Origin: Gemmatimonadota bacterium
GTDB taxonomy: Bacteria; Gemmatimonadota; Gemmatimonadetes; Gemmatimonadales; GWC2-71-9
DNA length: 64,000 nt
Assembly (NCBI GenBank): GCA_039586365.1
Contig: JBDHKN010000005.1
Coordinates: forward strand, 1 to 64,000
Direction of reading: 5' to 3'
Below are positions 43,712-59,111 of this stretch, in pieces. How positions within the stretch are numbered: the stretch's first letter is position 1; each line of letters begins with the position of its first letter. The notes beneath the pieces were generated by a model. The model had not been told where the DNA came from and did no database searches. It worked only from the letters and a program-made list of their open reading frames with translations. The translations under genes were made by a program, and so were the position numbers.

Positions 43712-43885
43712 CTAGCGACGCTTCGCCCGAGCCTTCTTCTTAGTGGCCTTCTTCTTAGTGGCCTTCTTCTTGGTGGCCTTCTTCTTGGTGGCCTTCTTCT
43801 TGGTGGCCTTCTTCTTCACAGCCTTCTTCTTGGTGGCCTTCTTCTTCACAGCCTTCTTCTTGGCGGCCTTCCTCTTTGCTGGCAT
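43712..43885 (-). CDS. Histone H1-like lysine-rich protein, 57 aa
   Basis: AGGAGG RBS; MPAKRKAA then nine KKKA[TVR] units; 15-nt tandem DNA repeat. Confidence 0.8.
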   Translation of the reverse strand: MPAKRKAAKKKAVKKKATKKKAVKKKATKKKATKKKATKKKATKKKATKKKARAKRR

Positions 43886-43985
43886 GCCTACCTCCTGTTG
43901 GTGGGTCAAGCCCCGCCATTCTCGACGGGACGGTTGCCTGAGCGACATACGATGCCACTCATTGTCTCCTGCTCTCTACTCTCTG

Positions 43986-45392
43986 CTACAACACTTCGCT
44001 GCTCTCACGCTCACGACCTAGGACATCACCGAGTTCGCTCCGCTGTATGGCGTCGGACCCGACCGTGAAGTGAAAGTCACGTACGACCACAGGTGGCACT
44101 ACTACAGGCACACCCAGGCCACCCGACTCTGAGGCAACTACTCGCACTGCCGATCCTATCGACTCCACGTTGTTCAGAATCGAGATAATGCTCTCCTTGA
44201 ACCACATATTGCTCACAGGCAGGACTATTCGCCCGTCCTCGATGAGAAACATCCCATCGCGCGTGAGCCCCGTGTACGTCAGTCGACGGTGGTCCACTGG
44301 CCGAACGTACCAGAACCTCGTTACCAGCAGCCCTCGGTCGACGGTAGATACCAGGTCGTCAACCGTTCCCTCACCACCGGTGAGTTTGATTCCGCCCCCA
44401 TGCAGCAGGGGCTCTCGACCCTGCCGACTTGCCCAGTAACGGTCATACTCGAGGTTCTGCAGGACTCCGTTCTCTATCCACGTCGTGTGACGCAGCGGTG
44501 TGCCGTCAGCGGCGAACGGACGGGCCAGCAGATCGGGGTCAGTTGGATCTGACAGCACCGAAAGGCGCTCGTCGATTACCTGCTCGCCGACCCTGTTGCC
44601 ATCCCCATTCCGCGAGAAGAAGGAGCGACCTTCATCTGCAGCTCTGGCAACCAAGGCGGCTTGTAGCAGTGTTATCAGGTTGCCGACAGCGGTCGGTTCC
44701 AAAACGACCGTGTAGGCTCCGACATCGACCGCCACGGCGTTTACACTCTGCCGTGCTCTGTTGATGGCCCGCTCCGCGAGTTCTCCCGGTGGGAGCATTT
44801 GCTCCCAATCGTTGTGGGTAGTGCCAGCCCAGGCTGACCCAGTTCCGTCCGTGGTTTGCACCGTCGTTGTATGGGATGCGAGGGTCGACTGGTGGTACGC
44901 GAACAATCCTGCGGTGTTCAGCAACGCCTCTGACCTAGCCCGAGTTTGGATGAACCCACCGGCGATCAAATCCGTTGAAGACGCCCGCTCAGTGACTGCC
45001 CGCACCGCGGTCACAAAGTCTTCATCCCCCAACTCATTTGTGCTGTCGAAAAACGCGGCACTGGGCAAATACTCTTGAGGGCCGAGGGGAGGCATGGTCT
45101 CCGGATCATCGGGGGCAAGCTGCGCCAACTCTTCAGAGCGAGAGACTGCGTCTTCAACCGCGGTGTCGCGCAGATCGTTCCACGTCACGGCTGCCCGCTT
45201 CTGACCGAATGTGGATGCTACGGTCACCTCTGCATCCGAGGCATCTCCCGATACCGTCATCTCATTGCGCGCATATCTAGCGAACCGAGTCAGCCCAGAA
45301 ACTAGCGTCACTTGCGCTGCATCTGCTGAGCTGTGCGACATGACCCTCTCGCACACCTCACGCGCATCGGCTTCGGTAAGAAACTCCGCCAT
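43986..45392 (-). CDS. TldD/PmbA family protein (PmbA/TldE-like subunit)
   Basis: TRFARYARN, YTVVLEP.AV, ADEGRSFF, WIENGVL, LLVTRFWY, TGLTRDG.FLIEDG. Confidence 0.88.
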   Translation of the reverse strand: MAEFLTEADAREVCERVMSHSSADAAQVTLVSGLTRFARYARNEMTVSGDASDAEVTVASTFGQKRAAVTWNDLRDTAVEDAVSRSEELAQLAPDDPETMPPLGPQEYLPSAAFFDSTNELGDEDFVTAVRAVTERASSTDLIAGGFIQTRARSEALLNTAGLFAYHQSTLASHTTTVQTTDGTGSAWAGTTHNDWEQMLPPGELAERAINRARQSVNAVAVDVGAYTVVLEPTAVGNLITLLQAALVARAADEGRSFFSRNGDGNRVGEQVIDERLSVLSDPTDPDLLARPFAADGTPLRHTTWIENGVLQNLEYDRYWASRQGREPLLHGGGIKLTGGEGTVDDLVSTVDRGLLVTRFWYVRPVDHRRLTYTGLTRDGMFLIEDGRIVLPVSNMWFKESIISILNNVESIGSAVRVVASESGGLGVPVVVPPVVVRDFHFTVGSDAIQRSELGDVLGRERESSEVL

Positions 45393-45404
45393 CGGCGACT
45401 CTAG

Positions 45405-47003
45405 CTAGACCGCCGTGTTGACGACTCTGAAGTCATGAAACCGCGCTGCCGGACACCCATGGCTCGCCGCATTTAGCTGCGTGGGCTGACCTTTGGCATC
45501 ACCGATCGTCCCGCAGAGCTGATAGCTACGAGCACCACCCAGCATATCCAGAGAATTCCAGAACTCCAATGTATTCCCCTGATAAGCTGTGTCCTTGAGC
45601 ATGCGGGTGATTCTCCCGCCGCGCACTTCATAACACACATGAGCGCCGAACTGGAAGTTGTATCGCTGCTGATCAATGCTATAGGGGCCACGCCCTTTGA
45701 TAAGAATCCCGCGATCTGTGGCGGCAACCAGGTCATCTAGCACAAGGTCGTTCTCTGCCGGCAACAACGAGACGTTCGGCATGCGCTGCAACTGGGCGAC
45801 ATCCCAAGACTCCCCGAACGAACAGCCGTGTGAACGACTGACGCCAGTCAACTCGGCGATCAGCGTCGCTTGCTCGCGAGTCGTCTGGTAGTCCACGAAC
45901 GTGCCATCCTGGATAATGGGCCAGCTGTCGGCGGTGACACCTTCGTCATCCCACCCCACTGTCGCGAGGCCACCCCTCTGAGTCCTATCGCCGATCACGT
46001 TCATGAACTCAGGTCCGTACCGAACTTCACCGATTGCAGTCTCCGGCGGTGCCAGGAATGACGTACCTGCGTAGTTGGCTTCATAGCCAAGCGCCCTGTC
46101 GAGTTCAGTAGGACGGCCGATAGTCTCATGAATGGTGTGGAACAGATTGGTCGGATCAATAATCAAATCGTAGCGACCCGGCTCCACTGCAGTGGCAGAC
46201 AGCATCTCGACAGCCAGCTCCGCCCATTCCGTGGCCCTGCCCGGCAGATCCGCAGCCTCGACATGCTCATATCCCAGTCCCATCGGGGCAATGTCAGTCG
46301 ATGTGTGGGACGCAACGTCACTGGAGTCGGTGGCCACGGCCGTTACTGTCATCGACGGGTAAGACCGGTAAAGTGTCTGCTCAATAATACTGCCGTCTGT
46401 GGAGGCAAACGTGGTTTCCACTTTCACGAAATACATGCTCGACGTCACAAACCGGGCAGCTGACACTGCTGCCGCTACCCTGTTTGCCTCGAGCAGCAGT
46501 TCGGTCTTGTCGCTCATCCTCACAGTGAAAGGGTCTCGCCGGACCGGCGTCATCCATCTGCCGTCCGGATAAGCGGTCACTCTGGCAAGCTGCACGGGTC
46601 GGCGAATTGCTTCGCTGTTTACCTCCGCTTGCTCCACCGCCCGCAACGCGATTCTACTACACTCCTCACGTGTCACAGTCCGACTCGCCGCAAACCCCCA
46701 GGCACCGTTGACCAGTGCCCTCACTCCCACTCCAAAGGTCTCACGGTCCTGCAATTCACTGACACGCTCTTCCTGCGCGGCAACGAACTGGTCGCGTTTG
46801 TTGACGATTCGCACATCTGCATATGTGGCTCGCTTCGAACGAGCGGCGTTCAGTGCAACCAGGCATAGATCTTTGAATGCCGCACCCTGCATGGTTCCCT
46901 GCGGAGTATACCCGAACTTCGGCAGCCAATCACTACCAACTGCGCCCAGTGCAACAGCGGAAAGCGTTGATTGCTTGATGAACTCGCGTCGTGTTCGTGA
47001 CAT
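45405..47003 (-). CDS. TldD family protein with Tat signal; zinc motif altered (HETIGR)
   Basis: MSRTRREFIK; YADVRI; ELDRALGYEANYAGTSF; WDDEGV; QRMPNVSL; SIDQQRYNFQF; SHGCP. Confidence 0.88.
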   Translation of the reverse strand: MSRTRREFIKQSTLSAVALGAVGSDWLPKFGYTPQGTMQGAAFKDLCLVALNAARSKRATYADVRIVNKRDQFVAAQEERVSELQDRETFGVGVRALVNGAWGFAASRTVTREECSRIALRAVEQAEVNSEAIRRPVQLARVTAYPDGRWMTPVRRDPFTVRMSDKTELLLEANRVAAAVSAARFVTSSMYFVKVETTFASTDGSIIEQTLYRSYPSMTVTAVATDSSDVASHTSTDIAPMGLGYEHVEAADLPGRATEWAELAVEMLSATAVEPGRYDLIIDPTNLFHTIHETIGRPTELDRALGYEANYAGTSFLAPPETAIGEVRYGPEFMNVIGDRTQRGGLATVGWDDEGVTADSWPIIQDGTFVDYQTTREQATLIAELTGVSRSHGCSFGESWDVAQLQRMPNVSLLPAENDLVLDDLVAATDRGILIKGRGPYSIDQQRYNFQFGAHVCYEVRGGRITRMLKDTAYQGNTLEFWNSLDMLGGARSYQLCGTIGDAKGQPTQLNAASHGCPAARFHDFRVVNTAV

Positions 47004-47410
47004 CAATCTCCTTCCAAGTATCGCATGCGACGGTGCGAATATTATAGATACCTTTAAAACGCGCAATACTCATTCATCACCAACAACACGCTGATCAATG
47101 CAGTTTCTGCCACAGTGGATTAGGGGGGCGTGCAAAACTGGGCTTCACTCGTGCGTCCCGAGCACACTAACGACTTCTGCTTGAGTGGGTCACGCCGGCG
47201 CATGTAAATGTTCATTGACATCAATCGATCGATGCTTCGAGTACTGTACCACTCTGCGAGCAAGAGTGAGACAGCAGGTGCACACTACTGTATGGACCGC
47301 GCGTGACCCTGCAAATTGTAAGAGTAGGTTGCCGGTGGTTACCATCATAGCGCGCCCTGAGCTCACACTCACACAGCGCACGCTTGAGGTTGAAGAACTA
47401 CACAGTGGTA

Positions 47411-49156
47411 TCAGTCTTCTTCCAGCGTCGACAGATCTCCTACTTCTTCCCCCCACTCGAGTGCCCGTAGATAACGCCTGAGGATCTTCCCCGACCTGGT
47501 TTTGGGAAGCTTCTCCGCAAACGCAATCTCGTGGGGCATGGCCAACGGTGACAGCCGCTTGCGGACGAAATTCATGATCTGGAGCTCGAGTTCTTCCGAA
47601 GGTTCATAACCTGGATTCAAAGCTACGAACGCCTTGACTACCTCCATGTTGATCTCATCGGGCTTACCAATGGCTGCGGCCTCTGCCACGGCTTCGTGTT
47701 CGATAAGTGCCGACTCGATCTCAAACGGACCAACCAGGTGTCCTCCTGTGTTGATCACATCGTCGTCACGACCAACGAACCAGAAGTACCCTTCGTGGTC
47801 CATACTGGCACGATCGCCAGACACATACCACAGATCTGGATTGCTGCGAAGTTCATCGGGCTGGTCGCCGGAGTTGGCGCCAATGAACTTGCTGCGGTAG
47901 ACGTCCGGCATCCCCCAGTATGTGCGGAACATAGCTGGCCAACCGGGCCGGAATGCGATCAGTCCGACGTTTCCCGGCTGTCTGATCGGCTCGTGGCTCT
48001 TCAGGTCTAGTACTGTGGCGGAGATCCCTGGAAACGGTTTGCCCATCGATCCGGGTTTGACCTGCATGCCCGGATAGTTGGCGATCATGATTGCGCCCGT
48101 TTCCGTTTGCCAGAACGTGTCATGGAAGGGAAGCCCGAGAGCCTTCTCACTCCAGATGACCGCTTCAGCGTTCAAGGGCTCACCAACAGATACGAGGTGA
48201 CGCAATGACGACAGATCGTACTGCCGTTCTGGATTCCCAGCCTCTCGCATCAATGAACGGATTGCGGTCGGGGCCGAGTACCATACGGTCACTTTGTTGT
48301 CTTGTATGAACTGGTACCAGCGGGCCGCCATGAAACCCGAGTCCAACACGCACTGAGTAACGCCGAGTGACCAGGGACCGATAATCCCATAGCTGGTGCC
48401 GGTCACCCAACCCGGGTCCGCGGTGCACCAGTACACATCCTGGTCAGTAAGATCGAGGACCCAATTGGCTGTCAAAGCCTGACCCCAGATAGAGCTGTGC
48501 ACGTGTAGTGCACCCTTGGGCTGTCCTGTGGTACCGGATGTGTAGTGCAGCACAGAAGGACTCTCGGGATCGGCTGGAAATACGGAAAAGTCACCCGCGC
48601 GCGGTGCCGCTTCGACGCCAAAGAACACTTCTCCGTCCTTGATCTTGGACTCATCTCCATCCACGACTATGACGTATTCCAGGCTGGGTAGCCTGTCTCT
48701 GATCTTGCGGACCTTCTTCACGTGCTTCTGTGTTGTCAGGATGGCCTTTGTCTCAGCATTCGCTAATCGAATCTCGAGTGATTCATCTCCAAATGCTGAG
48801 AAGAGCGGCTGTGCAATGGCACCGAGCTTGAGGATTCCGAGGAACGCGAAGTAGAGAGTGGGAATCTTGTCCATGAATATGCAGACCCTATCACCCTGCT
48901 GGACATCTAATCCCGATAGAAATTGTGCAATGCCATTGGACAATACGCGTAGATCGTCGAAGTTGTAGGTGTGCTTCTTCCCTCCGAATCCTTCCCAGAT
49001 CAAGGCGGGCTTGTCACCTTTACCTTGTGCACATATCCGATCGGAACACAGCGCCCCGATATTCAGAATCTCACCGTCGGTCCATCCCAACAGTTCCTTA
49101 GCGATATCCCAATTGAAATCGCTGACTCTTGTATCATAGGACACGATATTGCTCAT
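47411..49156 (-). CDS. acsA: Acetate--CoA ligase-like adenylate-forming enzyme
   Basis: HYTSGTTGQPKG, WCTADPGWVTG, DTFWQTETG, GRDDD, LPKTRSGKILRR. Confidence 0.88.
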   Translation of the reverse strand: MSNIVSYDTRVSDFNWDIAKELLGWTDGEILNIGALCSDRICAQGKGDKPALIWEGFGGKKHTYNFDDLRVLSNGIAQFLSGLDVQQGDRVCIFMDKIPTLYFAFLGILKLGAIAQPLFSAFGDESLEIRLANAETKAILTTQKHVKKVRKIRDRLPSLEYVIVVDGDESKIKDGEVFFGVEAAPRAGDFSVFPADPESPSVLHYTSGTTGQPKGALHVHSSIWGQALTANWVLDLTDQDVYWCTADPGWVTGTSYGIIGPWSLGVTQCVLDSGFMAARWYQFIQDNKVTVWYSAPTAIRSLMREAGNPERQYDLSSLRHLVSVGEPLNAEAVIWSEKALGLPFHDTFWQTETGAIMIANYPGMQVKPGSMGKPFPGISATVLDLKSHEPIRQPGNVGLIAFRPGWPAMFRTYWGMPDVYRSKFIGANSGDQPDELRSNPDLWYVSGDRASMDHEGYFWFVGRDDDVINTGGHLVGPFEIESALIEHEAVAEAAAIGKPDEINMEVVKAFVALNPGYEPSEELELQIMNFVRKRLSPLAMPHEIAFAEKLPKTRSGKILRRYLRALEWGEEVGDLSTLEED

Positions 49157-49218
49157 TCATTGACTCCAAACTGTGCTTTGAATCTGTTCCCCGGTGCGGG
49201 GTGGCGAACTGACCAACC

Positions 49219-51468
49219 TCACGTGCGGATCTCTGACAGCACGGGGACTCCGGACTTCTCAGTCCCCACCACCATCCTTGGCGATCCGCCACGCATTACT
49301 AGTGATTCTTTGAATACCGGAGCCCTCAGGGTCGTATCGCTGGTCGGAAACCGTGCGGTCCAGCTCTGACTGGGATCGAACAGTCCGATGAGATCGTTGA
49401 GTACGGCAGTCGCCACCGGTAACGCTCCCCCGACCGTGCCAATGAGTACGTTTTCACTGCCATCCGGATAGTGCAGTACCACGACTTGGTTCACATCCTT
49501 GACCATCCCTAAATGACTCTGCGCCCGAACAGCCATGGGTCGCACCGTAGCCAACACTTCGTCCGGTGCGCGTATTGCCATCGCCACCAGCTTGACTCTG
49601 AACTCGAGCTCCGGTGCACGTCTAACGAGTTCGGTATCGACTTGTTCAAGGCCGACAGTCTCAATCTGCTGGCCAACATGTCGCCGACCGGTTGCTTGGG
49701 TAAGCAACAGCATCAGTTTCTGAGCTGTGTCCCAGCCAGATACATCCAATTCCGAATCCGGCTCAGTCAGTTCACGTTCAACGGCTCTGGCAAGCGCCGC
49801 GTCGAGTGTAGCTCCTTGCTCCATGTGTTCCAACATTGTGTTACAGGCACTCGACAACACGGCTTGAAGGTCTCGTACAGTGCGCTGAGACAGCGGCCTC
49901 TCCAGCGAATGGATGAGCGGCCACCCAGCCGCAATCGAATCGTGGTATGCGATGCGAATCCCATGCTGAAATGCCAACCGATCCAACGCTTCGCCGTTGG
50001 CGCGCAGCAGCGCTTTGTTCGGGGTCACTACATGGTGGCGACGGATCAAGGCCTTCTGGACCAGTGGCAACGAGCCAAGCCCACGCGTCAGATCCAACAC
50101 AACGTCAATGTCTTGCCGCGAGACGACCGCATCCGGGTCGTAGCTGACTGGGACGGCGTCAAAGACGGGGTCCAGCTCCTTCTCAGTGTCCGTCTCCGCC
50201 ACCCCAGCAACTTCGATGAGCAGACCATTCCTGGTTGCCAATTGATGGCGTCGTTCCTCAATCAGCCGCAGGAACGACGCGGCAATCTGTCCAGCACCAA
50301 GGATAGCGAGCCGTACGGACCGCAGTTCACGCGCTTCGCGCGTGAACAGAGTCTTGGGCTCAGCGCCGGCTGGGCCACGCAAGATGTCTGCAATCTGGTC
50401 CGTGTCCAACAGGAAGGCGTCGTGACCGTTGGGCGACCGAATCTCTGCATACGCAACATCGCGACCCAGGTGCTCCAGGATGTCCGCCCCTAGCTGTACC
50501 TCAGCTGGTGGATAGAGATTATCCGAGCTGATACCGATCACGATTGTGGAACAGGTAACCCGGTTCAGTGCGCTCACCAGATCTCCCCGCCCCGCACTCA
50601 CATCGTGCAGATCCATCGCGCGGCTGAACAGCAGGTAAGTGAAAGGATCGAAACGCTGGGTAATTCGCCTGCCGTGATGTCTCAGCCAGGATTCGACATT
50701 GTACATTCCCCGCTCTCTCAGCACCGAGCCCGGCGCCTTGAACCAATCCCGACCGAACTTCTCCTCGAGGCCGATGGGAGAGCGGTAACTCATCATCCCG
50801 ACACCCCGCGCCACCATCTGCCCAACTTTGGCCACCACCTCATCTTCGGTGATATCGAGCTCGATTCCACGACGCTGGAGCCAGTTCAGGCCGATCTGAT
50901 AGGGTGATGTGCGCAGCGGCGCCGCCACAACGACAGCTTGGTCGACCATGTCTGGAGCCTCGATTGCCCACTCCCAGGCGATCATCGCTCCCATACTGGG
51001 GCCGATTACCATACTCAGACGTGGTATACCCAGTGCCTCCAAGAACAACCTCTGAACCCGCATCATGTCGAGGGGAGTGAGCAGCGGGAAGCGGTCCAAG
51101 TACGGTTTGCCGTCGCCGGACGGAAACCGCGGTCCGGTGGTCCCGTAGCAGCCGCCCAGGAGATTGGGGCAGAGGACGAAATGTGTGTCGGTGTCTATTG
51201 CCCGACCCGGGCCGATGAGAGGTTCCCACCAACCCAAGGGTTCGTCGGCAAACTCACCCGTAGCGTGGCAGTCGCTAGTCATGGGGTGAATGATGAGCAC
51301 AGCGTTGTCTCTTGCCGCGTTCAGCTCACCCCACGCTTCGTAGCTAATCTGGATTGCCGATAGCTCTCCGCCGTATGCCGCCCGGAACGGTTCAGGCAGG
51401 TCGAGGTGCACAACCTTGCCAAGCTCGACTGTTGGTGAGCTCCACCAGAGATCGCGATGGTCCTTCAT
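49219..51468 (-). CDS. Fusion of homoserine O-acetyltransferase (MetX) and a divergent homoserine dehydrogenase
   Basis: N-half: YEAWGELN..RDNAVL, NLLGGCYGTTGP, GPSMG, GHDAFL. C-half: ILGAGQIA, VVTPNKA, EPD...DVSGWDTAQKL; single uninterrupted frame. Confidence 0.85.
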   Translation of the reverse strand: MKDHRDLWWSSPTVELGKVVHLDLPEPFRAAYGGELSAIQISYEAWGELNAARDNAVLIIHPMTSDCHATGEFADEPLGWWEPLIGPGRAIDTDTHFVLCPNLLGGCYGTTGPRFPSGDGKPYLDRFPLLTPLDMMRVQRLFLEALGIPRLSMVIGPSMGAMIAWEWAIEAPDMVDQAVVVAAPLRTSPYQIGLNWLQRRGIELDITEDEVVAKVGQMVARGVGMMSYRSPIGLEEKFGRDWFKAPGSVLRERGMYNVESWLRHHGRRITQRFDPFTYLLFSRAMDLHDVSAGRGDLVSALNRVTCSTIVIGISSDNLYPPAEVQLGADILEHLGRDVAYAEIRSPNGHDAFLLDTDQIADILRGPAGAEPKTLFTREARELRSVRLAILGAGQIAASFLRLIEERRHQLATRNGLLIEVAGVAETDTEKELDPVFDAVPVSYDPDAVVSRQDIDVVLDLTRGLGSLPLVQKALIRRHHVVTPNKALLRANGEALDRLAFQHGIRIAYHDSIAAGWPLIHSLERPLSQRTVRDLQAVLSSACNTMLEHMEQGATLDAALARAVERELTEPDSELDVSGWDTAQKLMLLLTQATGRRHVGQQIETVGLEQVDTELVRRAPELEFRVKLVAMAIRAPDEVLATVRPMAVRAQSHLGMVKDVNQVVVLHYPDGSENVLIGTVGGALPVATAVLNDLIGLFDPSQSWTARFPTSDTTLRAPVFKESLVMRGGSPRMVVGTEKSGVPVLSEIRT

Positions 51469-51490
51469 CGAATATCGGGTTGACCCAACC

Positions 51491-52738
51491 TCACATTCCG
51501 AACTTTGCTTCGATTCCCTTCTTGTCCAACCCGAGGATCCCGTAGTTGTCGCCAACCTTGTTGAAGGCCTCGAGTGCTCGCTGCAACATCGAGACGTCGT
51601 GGTCAGCCGACAGCTGAGTTCTGATACGGGCCTGCCCCTGGGGCACCACCGGGAAGAAGAACCCTATGACGTATACACCCTCGTCATAGAGGTCTCGGGC
51701 GAAGTCCTGGCTCAGCTTGGCGTTGAACAGCATCACTGGGACGATGGGGCTCTCACCTTGCTTAATCACGAAGCCAGCATCAGTCAGTTCCTTGCGCCAG
51801 AACTTCGTGTTCTCCTCCAATCTGTCGCGACGCTCTGTGCTGCGGTTGACAATCTCGAGGACCTTGAGAGCTCCCGCAACCAGTGGAGGGGCCATGGTAT
51901 TGCTGAACAGGTACGGCCGCGCTCGTTGGCGGCAAAGTTCCACCAATTCTCTGCGCCCCGAGACACACCCACCAGACGCTCCACCCAGAGCCTTGCCGAG
52001 CGTCGTAGTGATCACGTCGATCCTACCCATGACACCGAAGTGCTCCGGGGTGCCACGGCCGGTCTTTCCGATGAAGCCGCTCGCATGACTGTCATCCAAG
52101 AACACCAAGGCGTCATGTTTCTCTGCTAGATCGCAGATCTGATCCAGCGGCGCCAAGTCGCCATCCATACTGAACACTCCGTCGGTCACGATCATCCTCA
52201 CGCGCTTGTCCTGATGTTCCTCCAACTTCTGCTCGAGGTGCTGCATGTTGGAGTGCTTATAGGTATCAGTCAGCGCCTTGCACAGTCGAATCCCATCCAC
52301 AATGCTGGCATGTACCAGACGGTCGGATATGATCACATCTTCCGGGCCCAGTATTGCCTCGAATACACCGGCGTTTGCATCCATACAGCTAGGAAACAGA
52401 ATCGTGTCTTCGGTACCGAGGAACGCCGAAAGCCTCTCCTCAAGTTCCCGATGAATGTCCTGCGTGCCACAAATGAACCTGACACTCGAAAGGCCGTAGC
52501 CGCGTTCCTCTAGCGCCCTGTGTGCTGCCTCTATGACTTCTGTATGAGAGGATAGGCCCAGGTAGTTGTTCGCGCATAGGTTCACGACCGACCTCAGTTC
52601 TGCGCCGGATGGAAATTCCACTCGAATGTTGGCGGACTGAGGCGAGTGAATGAAGCGCTCTTCCTTGTACAGCCCCTGGTCGCGAATGGAGTTCAGCTGA
52701 GCTTCATACGATTCCCTGAGTGAACCTCGATAGGCCAT
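51491..52738 (-). CDS. kbl: Glycine C-acetyltransferase (2-amino-3-ketobutyrate CoA ligase)-type alpha-oxoamine synthase
   Basis: CANNYLGL, SSVRFICGTQDIH, HASIVDG, DGVFSMDG, DDSH, TLGKALGG, RPYLFSN, PVVP.GQARIRTQ. Confidence 0.88.
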   Translation of the reverse strand: MAYRGSLRESYEAQLNSIRDQGLYKEERFIHSPQSANIRVEFPSGAELRSVVNLCANNYLGLSSHTEVIEAAHRALEERGYGLSSVRFICGTQDIHRELEERLSAFLGTEDTILFPSCMDANAGVFEAILGPEDVIISDRLVHASIVDGIRLCKALTDTYKHSNMQHLEQKLEEHQDKRVRMIVTDGVFSMDGDLAPLDQICDLAEKHDALVFLDDSHASGFIGKTGRGTPEHFGVMGRIDVITTTLGKALGGASGGCVSGRRELVELCRQRARPYLFSNTMAPPLVAGALKVLEIVNRSTERRDRLEENTKFWRKELTDAGFVIKQGESPIVPVMLFNAKLSQDFARDLYDEGVYVIGFFFPVVPQGQARIRTQLSADHDVSMLQRALEAFNKVGDNYGILGLDKKGIEAKFGM

Positions 52739-52739
52739 C

Positions 52740-52988
52740 TCACTCCCCTCCCTGGTGTTTCTTCACGACACGGACGATGTTCTTCACGGTGTCAAACGCT
52801 TCAGCAGATGCCTCTTCGTCGGAGATCGAGATATTGTACTTCTTCTCGAGAAATCGCTTCAAGCTAACCATGCTGAAGCTGTCGACTATACCGCTCGATA
52901 TCAGGGGAGTGTTCTCGTCGAGTTCTGTGTCCTCGTCGTCGTCTTCGAGGTATTCGTTGCGAATGTATTCCAAGACCACTGTTTCCAT
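52740..52988 (-). CDS. Acyl carrier protein
   Basis: Acidic 82 aa; LISSGIVDSFSMVSL (phosphopantetheine Ser); GAGGAGG RBS. Confidence 0.9.
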   Translation of the reverse strand: METVVLEYIRNEYLEDDDEDTELDENTPLISSGIVDSFSMVSLKRFLEKKYNISISDEEASAEAFDTVKNIVRVVKKHQGGE

Positions 52989-53059
52989 CGGTTCCTCCTC
53001 ATCACATTGAATCAATCAGCGACCGAGGGTCATGCACTACAGACAGCGAAGGGGACATT

Positions 53060-53440
53060 TCACGCTCTCTCCAACACCACTACGGCCCCTGCGTACTCGC
53101 GCTCGTGGCTGAGGCACAGATGGATTCTGCCAACTCCAAGGGCATTTGCCACCCTCTCGGCCTCTCCTCGGAGCCGTAGCCGTGGTGTTCCCCTGCCATC
53201 CCACGCCACCTTGATATCGTGCCACGACAGCCTGCCAAACAGACCCGTTCCGAGAGACTTGGACAACGCTTCCTTGGCCGCAAAGACCGCGGCGTATGAC
53301 GAGAATGGATGTGGTTGCGTTTGGCAGTTGGCAATCTCGTCAGCTGACAAGAACCCCTCCAAGAATCCCTCACCATGGCGAGTGACTCCGTCTCTCATCC
53401 GTGCGATCTCAGCCAAGTCAATCCCAATGCCTACAATCAT
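53060..53440 (-). CDS. acpS: Holo-ACP synthase (AcpS-type PPTase)
   Basis: GIGIDL, FAAKEALSKSLGTG, G.P, LSHEREYA. Confidence 0.92.
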   Translation of the reverse strand: MIVGIGIDLAEIARMRDGVTRHGEGFLEGFLSADEIANCQTQPHPFSSYAAVFAAKEALSKSLGTGLFGRLSWHDIKVAWDGRGTPRLRLRGEAERVANALGVGRIHLCLSHEREYAGAVVVLERA

Positions 53441-55368: not shown

Positions 55369-57507
55369 CTACCTGTCTGAGTCCTCATCCTCCCCAGGCT
55401 CTGACCCTTGCATGGCACGTTGCAGCGCCGTGGTGATCCTCTTGAGGAAACCACGCCCCTCTGCAGACGACCCATCGGACATTGCGTCTCCGGACGACGC
55501 ACTCGGTGGAACGGCAGCACCAAGGGGCGGGCTGGGAGCAACTGTCGCAGTAGGTGACCCGTGCTCTAGGGGCTGACTGGGCATTTGCTCCTGCACGGGC
55601 TCCGGCCTGGGAGAGCCAGTATCGGTTGTCCTCCTACCCCTACTTCCCTTTCGAACGCCCAACGTACGGCCCTTCGCCTCCTGTCGAGTGACCGCGGACG
55701 CAGTGGAAAGGGTGACCGAGGGAACGTCCTGCTTGTCATCTTGCGTCTCAGCAACGGGAGGCCGTGGTGCCGCACCGCGGGATCCCCGTCGGAATCGTGG
55801 GTTGCGCCTTGGAGTCGTGCCCACTTCAGTTGACGCCACGACGCTGGCTGTTGAATCATGCTGCGACCCGGATTGACGAGGTGACGGCTCGGCGAGCTCG
55901 CCATTCTTGGCAGAGGTCCGCGCCTTTGATCTAGGCGAACGTTTGGTTGCAGTCCTCGGTCGCCGAGTTGAGCGCTTGGCCGGGCTGGGCGCCTCATCAG
56001 CAACCGACTTCCCTGTGGCAGCACCCTCATGTGACGCGAGCTCGGCTGCACCTTCGTCACCCTTAGGTTCGTCCTTGGAAACCCGCAGCCCAGTGGTTCG
56101 TGGGACTGTCTTGCGGCGTGGTGGTTTCGCAGCCTCTTCACCCTGTTTCTCCGATTTCACCGCCACCTCACCCCCGGCTACAGCTTCACCGCTTTCAGGC
56201 GCATCCTTCTTCTTGGCCCTCGATTTGGCGGATTTACGAGTTGTAGCACGAGCCCGGCGTGCCGGTTTCTTCGTTTCCACAATTTCAGTGACTGGTTCCT
56301 GCGACTCCGACTCCGCAACCACGTCGACTGCATCAGTGCCCGGCTCGGGAACACCCACTGCCTCGGCTACAGGAGCCAACCTCAGCTGGTAACCCTCGTC
56401 GTCCCTCTTGATAAGATCAATAATCCCGGCATCATGGGCCTGTCGCAGCATTCGCAAAAAACGCTTTGGCTCAAAAGCTGGTTCCGCCTTGTTGCCTGAC
56501 AGCTCCGTCAACTTGTCCCGAGCCCGATCAGCGTCGGTAGACTCAGCGCCCACTGCACCGAGCGCCACCAATGTTTGACGTAGCAGCTCGAAGCTCTCGC
56601 TCAGGGTGAGACTGGGTGCAGCAGCTGCTTCCGCTGCTCTGCGAGGACCCCGCAGTCGGGACTTGTCATCACTGGCTCTGTCACCGCCGACTTGTGGCAC
56701 TGACACCGGCTCTTGGGCGTGTGGCACGTTGGCGTTGGCGCCAATCTCAATGGCGTATTGGCCGTTATCCATCTTGGCCAGCTTGACCAAGCCACGCTGA
56801 CCCGCCGCCACAACGAACTTGCTAAACCTATTGTACCCCGCATCACGTTCGTCGAAGTTGGGATCCAGCGTTTGCATAACCTGTTTGAGACGGTCTGACC
56901 GCATCACGTCGCCGTCTCTCTGCATCCGCTGTACCGCTTCAACGACGAGTTGCCAGGGGTCTTTGCGAACGTGCTCGACCTCACGTTCCTTAGCCAATCC
57001 CGTCAATTCGTTGTAACTGTAGTACTCGTCGCAGTTCTGCACGAGCAGGTCGCTTGCAGACTCTCGTATTCCGACGCCGATTACGAACTTGCCGTATTCC
57101 TTCAGCTTCAGAACCAATGCCGAGAAGTCGGAGTCTCCTGACAGCAGGATGAAGGTGCCGATCTCGGGACGGATGAAGACAAGCTCGAGCGCATCAATAG
57201 CCAGCCGGATATCGGTTGCGTTCTTCTTGTTCGCACCGAATGCCGGCGCGAAGATGAGATCAATGGAAGCTTCGGATAGCGGGACTATGTACTGAGGGTA
57301 GCGCCGCCAGTCAGCATACGCTCGCTGGACCGAAACTTTGCCCTTGATGATGTCTGAATTTAGTAGTTTGCGAAGCTGATTCTGAAGATCCGAGCGGATC
57401 CCCAGCGTCACATTATCAAAATCGATCAGCAGCGCAGCATTGGGAGCATCGCCCAATGACTCCGACCGGGCGGATCGCTGCGACCGCCCGACTATGGTTT
57501 CTCTCAC
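55369..57507 (-). CDS. NYN-domain ribonuclease-like protein with OST-HTH/LOTUS-like domains and a long low-complexity tail
   Basis: [58 protein letters not shown]. Confidence 0.85.
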
Positions 57508-59111
57508 GTGGCACTCAGTTCCAGCCCGACAACCTGCGTCAGCTCTCTTCGCTTCACCTTCCCGCTCCCGGTAAGAGGGAAAGTGTCGAAGAAGCGAACC
57601 AGGTCCGGTACCTTGTAGTCAGCCACCTGATCACGGACAAAATCTCTCAATTCGTCTCCCGTGATGATGGCACCTTCCACCGGTATGACACACGCGCATG
57701 CTAACTCACCGAGAATCTCGTTCGGCACACCAACCACACATGCATCATCGACCGCTGGGTGCGTGCGGAGGACATCCTCCAGCTCGCGCGGAAAGATCTT
57801 GTAGCCGCCACGAATGATCATAGCACTGCGGCGGCCCACAATCGTCACGTACCCACGCTCATCCACAATCGCCAGGTCTCCCGTCAGGAAGAAGCCATCC
57901 TCCGTGAACGATCGTTTGGTCTCCGTCGGCATGCGGTAATATCCCGCCATGACGTTGGGACCCTTGACTGCCAGTTCGCCCACGGCTTCTGGACCGTGCA
58001 GTTCACCCGTCCTGACATCCACCACCTTCACTTGAACTCCATCCAGGGGCCGCCCAACGGTATGTGTGCGCGAGTCTGGTGGGTCGTCATCGCGCGTGAT
58101 GGTCACCGTTGATGCAGCCTCTGTTAGCCCGTAGGCGATCTGAATGTTGCACCACCGTCTGAGCCTTTGTACCAGGTTATCGGATACCGGGCTTCCGGCC
58201 ACGATACCGGTTCTCACGGTGGTGAGCTTGCGGCCCCTGAATGCTGGATCGCGCATCAGAAGCTCGAACATGGTGGGCACTCCGGGGCAGACCGTTATCC
58301 CCTCGGATTCGATGAGGTTGAGAGTCGCAGCGGGGTCAAAACGATCCTGCAGGACGATTGTACCACCCCGCAAGAGCGTTGCAATACCCATGTGCGCCCC
58401 GAACGCTGTGAACAGCGGCACCGACAGCAGGACCCGGTCAGACTCCGACAACTTCAACACATCGCCGGTTCCCTGCGTCGTCGCCGTCAGATTCCGGTGC
58501 GTGAGAACAACCCCCTTAGGCTTGCCCATCGTACCGGACGTGTAGATAATCGCAAGCGTCGCAGACTCCGGATCCAGTGCTGCGGGCTTGGCGTCAACTC
58601 GCCGCCCTCGCCTTAGCAGGTTGCTGAACCGAAACACCCTGTCGTCATACCAGAAATCCTCCTGACCGGCCAAGACCAGGTACTGCAGATCCGGCAACTC
58701 GGTGATCAGCTCGTCGAAAACCTCGAGATAATCCATTTCACCCAGAGACTCCACTGCCACGGCCAGACTGGCCTCAGCGTGTCGCAGCTGATACTTGAGA
58801 TCGCGGTAGCCTAGGGAAGGGTTCAGCGGAACGAGAACTGCACCCAGCCTTGCCGCTGCCAGCATGGTGATTATCCACTCTGGCCGGTTGGGAAGATCGA
58901 CGGCGATACGGTCGCCCGCCTCGATCCCTAGATCCAGGAACGACGCAGCCAACGCCGTGGAGTCAGCATTGACCTGATCATACGTCAGTTTGCGTGATCC
59001 GAGGACCAAGCACTCGCGGTCGGGGTGCTGTTGCGCCCGCTGGGCAAACAGATCCGCCAGGGCGTGCGTCGTCAAATAGACCCTCTCTCCTACACGTCGA
59101 GAATCATTCAA
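57504..59111 (-). CDS. Class I adenylate-forming enzyme (acyl-CoA synthetase-like)
   Basis: [37 protein letters not shown]. Confidence 0.9.

Follow-up and report, generated by a model that had tools for sequence, protein, structure and literature searches.

Why would a dedicated carrier protein be encoded among enzymes that are annotated as dependent on coenzyme A (CoA)? This question is raised by five minus-strand open reading frames (ORFs) at positions 47411-53440 of a 64,000-nucleotide stretch of a Gemmatimonadota genome (contig JBDHKN010000005.1; "the window" denotes this whole stretch), which in operon order read acpS, acyl carrier protein (ACP), kbl, metX::hom, and acs. The initial annotation had described five co-oriented, closely spaced genes with these identities, and the description was confirmed by their coordinates, with intergenic gaps of 71, 1, 22, and 62 nt, and by their family scores. 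Here, we find that they represent a carrier-linked module that is real, widespread, and uncharacterized; no published description of its core was found in our literature search, most subscription papers and supplements lying outside its coverage. The module, or cassette, probably maintains a private acetyl-ACP pool that stands apart from CoA, whichever direction it works in. Its direction is assigned more tentatively, and we favor a reading in which Kbl would load the ACP from threonine and Acs or MetX would unload it.

A conserved core around the carrier protein

The carrier is a stand-alone acidic protein of 82 aa (52740..52988) with 20 Asp/Glu against 9 Lys/Arg residues, in which Ser37 lies within a GIVDSFSM motif and the ATG start is preceded by a GAGGAGG site. 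Its assignment, like the other family assignments reported here, is based on profile scores against curated cut-offs (PP-binding, 23.2 against 20.8). The family is large and tight, with 5071 homologs among 5072 candidates, and the solved structures nearest to its profile are type II peptidyl carrier proteins (PCPs; 6CXT, PigG, and PltL), not AcpP. Carriers of this type receive their cargo from stand-alone adenylating enzymes; unlike the prodigiosin and pyoluteorin carriers PigG and PltL, however, this ACP has no proline adenylase, flavin dehydrogenase, halogenase, or ketosynthase recurring nearby. Neither ketosynthases nor tailoring enzymes accompanied the ACP in the 16 recurring neighbor clusters scanned (60 listed, from 91 loci), and no transporter gene recurred in the neighborhoods of the ACP or the fusion. 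The neighboring acpS gene (53060..53440) encodes an AcpS-type phosphopantetheinyl transferase (TIGR00516, 105.6 against 59.8), which, judging from its family, would add phosphopantetheine to Ser37. Because the host genome (G000; 86% complete) holds a second AcpS (C92:99446) as well as a canonical AcsA (C84), the AcpS and Acs of the operon are extra copies.

A survey covering roughly half of the GTDB collection yielded 565 confirmed stretches bearing this ACP; the counts that follow refer to the best 80 loci, three of which repeat genomes of the host's genus that were also taken individually. Lineages represented in their titles are, among others, Acidobacteriota, Gemmatimonadota, Zixibacteria, WOR-3, Aminicenantes, Calditrichaeota, KSB1, Bacteroidales, Ignavibacteria, Planctomycetota, and Myxococcales. 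In 74 of the 80, kbl immediately follows the ACP, and two of the six loci lacking it stop at a contig edge. An acs gene is near the ACP in 68 loci and directly upstream in 60, while acpS is present in 40, a second Kbl in 13, and an acetyl-CoA hydrolase/transferase::GNAT fusion in 10. The threonine dehydrogenase gene tdh is found near the ACP in 13 loci, being co-directional and upstream in 10 of these. Finally, a MetX of the fusion family occurs in five. The co-conservation of all five genes that the initial annotation had proposed to survey thus holds for the acs–ACP–kbl core and fails for the family MetX (5/80) and acpS (40/80): the conserved core is (acpS)–acs–ACP–kbl, the five genes do not form an invariant unit, and acpS is an optional part. 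Among the eight loci of the genus, acpS is found only in that of the host, with a 35-aa remnant in G002. In one assembly, the cassette is split between two ACP copies, L039, one of the loci lacking kbl, with acs and L061 reading acpS–ACP–kbl.

The five-gene arrangement is nevertheless more than chance. The exact order is repeated in G086 with tdh directly upstream, and the order ACP–kbl–fusion–acs is repeated in G005, G006, G007, G250, G523, G524, and G526, spanning three phyla.

Kbl and Acs of the cassette form separate clades

The Kbl paralog (51491..52738; TIGR01822, 593 against 493; PRK06939, 588 against 460) belongs to an ACP-adjacent clade, which holds 81 of the 81 ACP-adjacent Kbls and has 83 members among the 106 proteins in the tree (FastTree support 0.76). 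Residues N57, V86, H143, S190, H218, K249, L277, F278, and R373, which are kept in 82-83 of the 83, match the cavity residues N52, V81, H138, S187, H215, K246, L274, F275, and R370 of CnKBL from Cupriavidus, as given in the accessible part of PMC9814548. Since every cavity residue described there is kept, glycine and acetyl are likely to be the Kbl substrates. The identical active site and the adjacency of tdh recall the Tdh–Kbl threonine cleavage described for Escherichia coli and, in the accessible part of PMC9814548, for Cupriavidus. Canonical Kbl, in contrast, uses CoA and has no ACP, phosphopantetheinyl transferase, or Acs gene beside it, whereas the cassette Kbl carries the clade-specific residues R79, R140, V142, H167, and K341, several of them basic, together with a C-terminal extension. 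Of these, R140/V142 take the place of E,Q,A/N beside H143, in a patch that we take, by analogy with ALAS, to be the site binding the CoA nucleotide. By every feature examined, the protein appears to be a true Kbl, one for which the ACP would be the thiol partner.

No other Kbl was found in the host genome. Most of the 201 Gemmatimonadota genomes carry an ordinary Kbl at 43-49% identity, and the cassette type (at least 68% identity) was found in ten, with the ACP adjoining in eight. In G086, the cassette sits in the usual locus of tdh, of the short-chain dehydrogenase/reductase (SDR) type, and kbl, as seen in G026 and G022, where it replaces the ordinary kbl. Serine palmitoyltransferase (SPT) models scored 224-326 on the cassette Kbl, below their cut-offs of 500-670. 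A sphingolipid role was rejected on this ground, together with the separate SPT-like gene on C105.

The AMP-forming acetate ligase (47411..49156; PRK04319, 732 against 729) is of the Bacillus type, and all 74 ACP-linked Acs form one clade with a support of 1.0 against 96 controls. The acetate pocket and the catalytic Lys (V251, V324, W349, and K557) are kept in 74/74, the pocket roles being presumably those of Salmonella Acs. Further clade-specific residues are N503/M504 and other C-terminal positions. In the CoA-binding loop (E188-G189, R191, and R194 in characterized Acs), K144 and H145 replace E-G, the R191-equivalent position is variable, and R150 is kept; the loop of B. subtilis AcsA also deviates, yet that enzyme uses CoA. 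A conserved basic stretch (K144, H145, K148, R150, and K151) occupies the position of the Salmonella Acs CoA-binding loop, as located in the accessible part of PMC13404658. We infer that the basic patches of Acs and Kbl could face the acidic ACP.

The phylogenetic check suggested by the initial annotation placed the Kbl, Acs, and MetX of the cassette each in a clade separate from the controls. The proposal of a dedicated carrier serving both Acs and Kbl is thus supported by their co-conservation and by the separate clades of the two enzymes.

A MetX::Hom fusion family with an altered acceptor loop

The metX::hom gene (49219..51468) is a single frame encoding 749 aa, with a MetX-family domain at about residues 1-365 (50344..51468) followed by a homoserine-dehydrogenase-like domain (49219..50343). 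PRK00175 scored 341.6 against 331 and two Hom Pfam domains were matched, whereas TIGR01392 on the MetX domain (327 against 500) and PRK06349 for Hom (195 against 205) remained below their cut-offs. Among 8000 scored candidates, 207 proteins matched the fusion, and residue counts refer to the best 120 of these, which are full-length and 55-100% identical. The MetX triad S158/D316/H349 is almost invariant (119/120 for S158, 120/120 for D316 and H349). The acetyl-type L318 and the amino-acid-binding R221 and D350, whose roles follow the accessible part of PMC13683966, are kept in 120/120, as is the amino-acid-binding Y228. In the Hom half, the catalytic residues K485, E569, D575, D580, and K584 are retained in 120, 116, 116, 117, and 120 of the 120, respectively (PMC3958823, a docking study, in its accessible part). 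In their folds, triad, acetyl-type Leu, amino-acid-binding residues, and Hom catalytic residues, the two halves therefore resemble MetX, DcsE, and homoserine dehydrogenase as far as these are described in the accessible sources. They differ in that the fusion is a long-branch clade that follows the ACP and in that Ask/Asd and MetY were not found in many carriers.

Family-specific changes in MetX involve the acceptor loop (P62 and S65), the position preceding the nucleophile (P157), and several Trp. The loop reads H-P-M-T-S in place of the canonical H-A-L-T-G, whose A and G are present in 77 and 75 of 88 controls, while 24 family members hold P/T in 22 cases and A/S in 20 at these positions. 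The loop also lacks the serine-type residues of DcsE, Gly52 and Pro55, where P62 and S65 stand instead; a swap in DcsE reportedly has an effect. The Hom half has its own changes (H509, W516, and W579), and SS(A/T)C replaces NGTS (S539-S540-A/T541). The family MetX is monophyletic (24 of 112 proteins, support 1.0). Midpoint rooting places cassette-linked proteins deepest in the family, two of which are MetX alone. These features indicate that the fusion is a long-branch family of its own, MetX-like, with an altered acceptor loop and nucleophile elbow. A structure model of the fusion (25 sequences; predicted local distance difference test [pLDDT] score 76.6) confirmed both the MetX and the Hom folds; the MetX lid and acceptor loops fell below a pLDDT of 50, and we therefore drew no pocket claims from it.

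Unrelated MetX-Hom fusions of about 34% identity occur without a cassette in five of the 201 Gemmatimonadota genomes and at L160 and L170, and three unrelated Gemmatimonadota fusions mostly retain the usual E-x-x-V and NGT motifs. These unrelated fusions are of two kinds (L263-L265, L160, and L170), and the fusion of the two domains likely arose more than once.

The fusion follows the carrier, and the carrier outlives Acs

The ACP is present in 22 of 25 genomes that bear the family MetX: in 13 of 14 carriers within an Acidobacteriota class (background 22/119 genomes), in six of eight within Eisenbacteria (background 22/151), and in three of three within the 201 Gemmatimonadota genomes. Excluding the seed genomes G000, G250, G227, and G270 leaves 18 of 21; G021, G084, G178, G203, and G453 enter these tallies as counts. 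In at least ten carriers, the fusion lies on another contig or at least 18 kb away from the ACP. The converse fails, as only four of 50 cassette genomes (50 of the 80 loci were taken) contain the family. A metagenome scan, from which 76 ordinary MetX served as controls, placed four family members among 80 loci, three beside a cassette and one apart. The fusion is thus a new branch enzyme on a carrier-linked module, its presence following that of the ACP.

Losses within the genus tie MetX to the carrier. ACP–kbl–MetX is found in all eight genus genomes, whereas Hom and Acs are kept in four. In G001-G004, the ACP, Kbl, and MetX have intact motifs and MetX terminates at its own stop codon, while Hom and Acs are absent or fragmented with differing breakpoints, and no intact cassette Acs was found elsewhere in these genomes. 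In a tree of the three kept proteins, the Hom/Acs losses fall on three branches, and a single shared loss was rejected (approximately unbiased [AU] test, p = 2e-7). Between G001 and G003, both without an intact Acs, the ACP (dN 0.057, dS saturated) and MetX (dN/dS 0.135/2.9) are under purifying selection. A different outcome is seen in G197 and G171 (93-95% complete), in which a cassette-type Kbl stands alone (L126:7665-8909 and L129:8132-9208, respectively, the G171 contig ending inside kbl) and neither the ACP nor a family MetX was detected. The ACP hence persists where Kbl has a second partner, be it Acs or MetX, and is missing where Kbl is the sole survivor, a pattern that a shuttle would predict.

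Acetyl may be drawn from threonine

In the reading that we favor, AcpS would first furnish the carrier with its arm, and Tdh would convert threonine to 2-amino-3-ketobutyrate. The initial annotation had stated that the window contains no tdh, which holds for that stretch; elsewhere, however, the host genome encodes an SDR-type Tdh, on C77, where its neighbors are genes for alanine dehydrogenase and a CoA-transferase, and in relatives tdh lies beside the cassette. Kbl would then cleave the ketobutyrate to glycine and acetyl-ACP, a step for which the chemistry is established and the residues are present, with the ACP as the putative acceptor. The Acs paralog would run in reverse, converting acetyl-ACP, AMP, and PPi to acetate and ATP, and with the acetyl group on a carrier separate from CoA, it could do so even as the ordinary AcsA runs forwards. 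Alternatively, the MetX domain would take acetyl from the ACP onto its own Ser and transfer it to the hydroxyl group of an amino acid, with homoserine or serine as the likeliest acceptor. The fused Hom would supply homoserine where aspartate semialdehyde exists, and the O-acetyl product would feed methionine or cysteine synthesis. Of the claims in the initial annotation, the alternative one, that acetyl-ACP links glycine/threonine with homoserine/methionine metabolism, fits these data best.

Unloading by Acs is favored because the ACP outlives Acs, because related Acs share operons with pyruvate dehydrogenase (PDH) and an ACP, and because ATP-forming AMP-type Acs are known. The related Acs (47-49% identical) are encoded in acsA-pdhA-pdhB-E2-ACP operons of two plasmids (L296:3810-9017 in NZ_CP124618.1 and L297:4935-10164 in NC_006139.1), which are known from annotation alone and likely represent a second carrier-linked acetyl system. 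They likewise unite such an Acs with a free-standing ACP and an enzyme that produces acetyl, but this enzyme is PDH, not Kbl, and their ACPs have no detectable similarity to ours. As PDH can only supply acetyl and two acetyl producers in one operon make little sense, these operons hint at unloading. In Syntrophus aciditrophicus, an AMP-forming Acs serves ATP synthesis (PMC13404658 and PMC4992975, in their accessible parts). There too, the bias-setting start of the CoA loop (E-G in Salmonella) is non-consensus, as it is here (K144, H145); that enzyme, however, is CoA-dependent and falls in a different Acs subgroup, and the likeness is a weak hint, the loop deviating throughout the Bacillus-type subgroup. 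The claim of the initial annotation that Acs loads the carrier is accordingly not borne out by the selection on the ACP after Acs loss or by the sister Acs that share operons with PDH and an ACP. On balance, we lean toward unloading.

For the MetX acceptor, homoserine is, judging from the residues, the most likely candidate and serine the next, cysE having been found in none of the eight genus genomes and above the cut-off in four of the other 13 carriers. Two CysK/CBS-like genes of the host scored below the cut-off; MetX may conceivably substitute for CysE. The host has a cystathionine gamma-synthase-family gene above the cut-off and MetH. Two further roles were discarded: methionine breakdown through reversed MetY and MetX would, by our own reasoning, be uphill, and MetY was not found; a replacement of ThrB/ThrC by the cassette is rejected for the genus, where both genes are present. 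All five genomes examined for ThrB have it, G086 as well as four members of the genus, and ThrC was found in the host, the host loci being G000:C91:27346-28425 and G000:C47:34619-35575.

Counterevidence and competing explanations

Several observations weigh against the flow from threonine through the carrier. Genomes within a sample are related to one another, so that the co-occurrence counts suggest more independent cases than there are and the Fisher values derived for them are too strong, and the fusion is found in G330, G321, and G462 with no ACP detected. Support for the Kbl clade is modest, as is that for its fusion-linked subclade (0.69). G001 and G004 are 74% and 69% complete, the break in G004 borders an N gap, and after loss of the cassette Acs, loading of the ACP could fall to the housekeeping AcsA. 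The cassette-type Kbl of G197 and G171, found with no ACP, implies that this Kbl probably can use CoA, and it offers a natural comparison between CoA and ACP use. The tree link between the cassette Acs and the PDH-operon Acs is loose (0.93 for a wide group, 0.64 inside it), and BLAST found no similarity between the cassette ACP and the PDH-operon ACP. Finally, no source of homoserine for MetX is visible in the genus, in which no Ask or Asd was found although ThrB and ThrC are kept, and MetY exceeded the cut-off in none of 21 family carriers.

Loading by Acs is favored by a further set of such points, and with it the strongest rival, which retains the same private carrier but in an anabolic role and which we consider only somewhat less likely than the favored reading. 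Here, Acs would load acetate with ATP and hold the ACP in a highly acetylated state, which would drive Kbl to condense acetyl with glycine, and Tdh would reduce the product to threonine; MetX would tap the same pool for O-acetylhomoserine, providing an alternative threonine/methionine supply without the aspartate route. Threonine formation by coupled Kbl and Tdh was reportedly observed in older E. coli work. In one Acidobacteriota class, canonical Hom occurs in three of 22 genomes with the cassette, compared with 45 of the other 97, and the fused Hom is the sole Hom in all 12 carriers of that class as well as in G000, G006, and G007. Asd is missing in 8/8 genus genomes, and neither Asd nor, above its cut-off, Ask was found in the host or in six other Gemmatimonadales carriers tested (0/7 for Ask). 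A system that runs forwards is also known: in Caulobacter and other Rhodobacteria, the ligase AasR acylates only its own ACP, AcpR, which serves serine palmitoyltransferase (PMC9386255, in its accessible part). This system resembles the cassette in that an AMP-forming ligase, a dedicated ACP, and a pyridoxal phosphate-dependent alpha-oxoamine synthase co-occur in both, and the cassette may be an AasR/AcpR/SPT-like working shifted from long acyl to acetyl, the substrate features that define that system being missing. The cassette differs in having an Acs with an acetate pocket, a true Kbl, a tdh neighbor, an added O-acetyltransferase::dehydrogenase, no recurring lipid genes, and possibly a reversed direction. 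Against this anabolic explanation, amino-acid-fermenting auxotrophs would also be expected to lack Hom, and Asd is missing in 17 of 24 family genomes with or without a cassette. Moreover, the ACP outlasts three Acs losses, and ThrB and ThrC are kept in the genus.

An improbable alternative is that these are ordinary CoA enzymes clustered by regulation, with the ACP a passenger or a partner of Acs only and MetX::Hom a normal methionine-branch fusion. All of the enzymes exceed their canonical family cut-offs or come close to them, unrelated MetX-Hom fusions exist without any cassette, and the solitary Kbl of G197 and G171 is in line with it. Such an explanation nonetheless leaves unaccounted for the near-fixed ACP–Kbl adjacency across phyla, the separate clades, the dependence of MetX on the ACP (22/25) even when unlinked, and the purifying selection that the ACP still experiences once Acs is gone.

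Still less probable is the principal proposal of the initial annotation, a new metabolite, in which Acs would load the ACP, Kbl would form an aminoketone, Hom would reduce it to threonine or allo-threonine, and MetX would O-acylate the product. In its favor, fixed family-specific changes lie near the substrate sites of both fusion halves, the P62..S65 loop is unlike both the homoserine type (A..G) and the DcsE serine type (G52..P55), and the Hom catalytic residues are kept in a genus in which Ask and Asd were not found. A new aminoketone received no positive support, however, as Kbl is canonical and Tdh is its recurring partner, and a fusion acting as reducer and O-acylator is at odds with the homoserine-binding residues kept in MetX and with a Hom half that was lost three times while MetX was retained. 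The fusion is also frequently remote from the cassette, its neighborhoods show no recurring transporter or tailoring gene, and three of three Eisenbacteria carriers tested have Ask and Asd, which makes the canonical substrate available.

A transacetylase or thioesterase role for the MetX-like domain, moving acetyl between the ACP and CoA or water to recycle the carrier, is very unlikely: MetX catalysis does proceed through an acetyl-serine intermediate, the minimal set ACP–Kbl–MetX recurs without Acs, and another candidate recycler, the acetyl-CoA hydrolase/transferase::GNAT, has its gene close to the cassette in 10 of 80 loci, but the amino-acid-binding R221, Y228, and D350 are invariant in 120/120 and the Hom fusion points to an amino-acid acceptor.

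Genomic surroundings

In the wider set of 91 loci, the acetyl-CoA hydrolase/transferase fused to GNAT was seen in 12, mostly Acidobacteriota (e.g. L045:11714-13585), and is a possible alternative route for acetyl-ACP recycling; an unfused homolog lies beside the host tdh (G000:C77:33619-34896). Downstream of the operon in the window, a co-oriented TldD/PmbA pair (43986-47066) keeps its position across the genus, an adjacency that is probably ordinary synteny, and a small Lys/Ala-rich ORF with KKKAT repeats (43712-43948) is histone-H1-like by composition only. Upstream (55369-59111) lie two genes kept in the genus, one encoding a long-chain acyl-CoA ligase-like protein and the other a NYN/LOTUS-domain protein that carries a long low-complexity tail; the ligase-like protein shares just 26% identity with the cassette Acs. 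Rfam gave no matches within the 64-kb window, and promoter and terminator scans did not rise above chance level.

Implications

If the private acetyl-ACP pool exists, AcsA, Kbl, and MetX that are annotated as CoA-dependent in hundreds of uncultured genomes would use a protein-bound acetyl pool, through which the direction of near-equilibrium reactions would be set apart from the CoA pool. ATP would then be gained from threonine, or threonine would be built from glycine and acetate. A bolder combination, which we regard as improbable, joins the private pool and ATP formation by a reversed Acs with the first ACP-dependent MetX-type enzyme whose substrate would be a C4 amino acid distinct from homoserine; aminoketobutyrate would be reduced to threonine or allo-threonine and then O-acetylated, in bacteria unable to make homoserine from aspartate. 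With or without that step, an ACP-using MetX would be new for the MetX family, within the literature searched, and the naturally reduced ACP–Kbl–MetX versions offer a small test system. Metabolic reconstructions would change accordingly for sediment lineages including Gemmatimonadota, Acidobacteriota, Eisenbacteria, Zixibacteria, WOR-3, and others.

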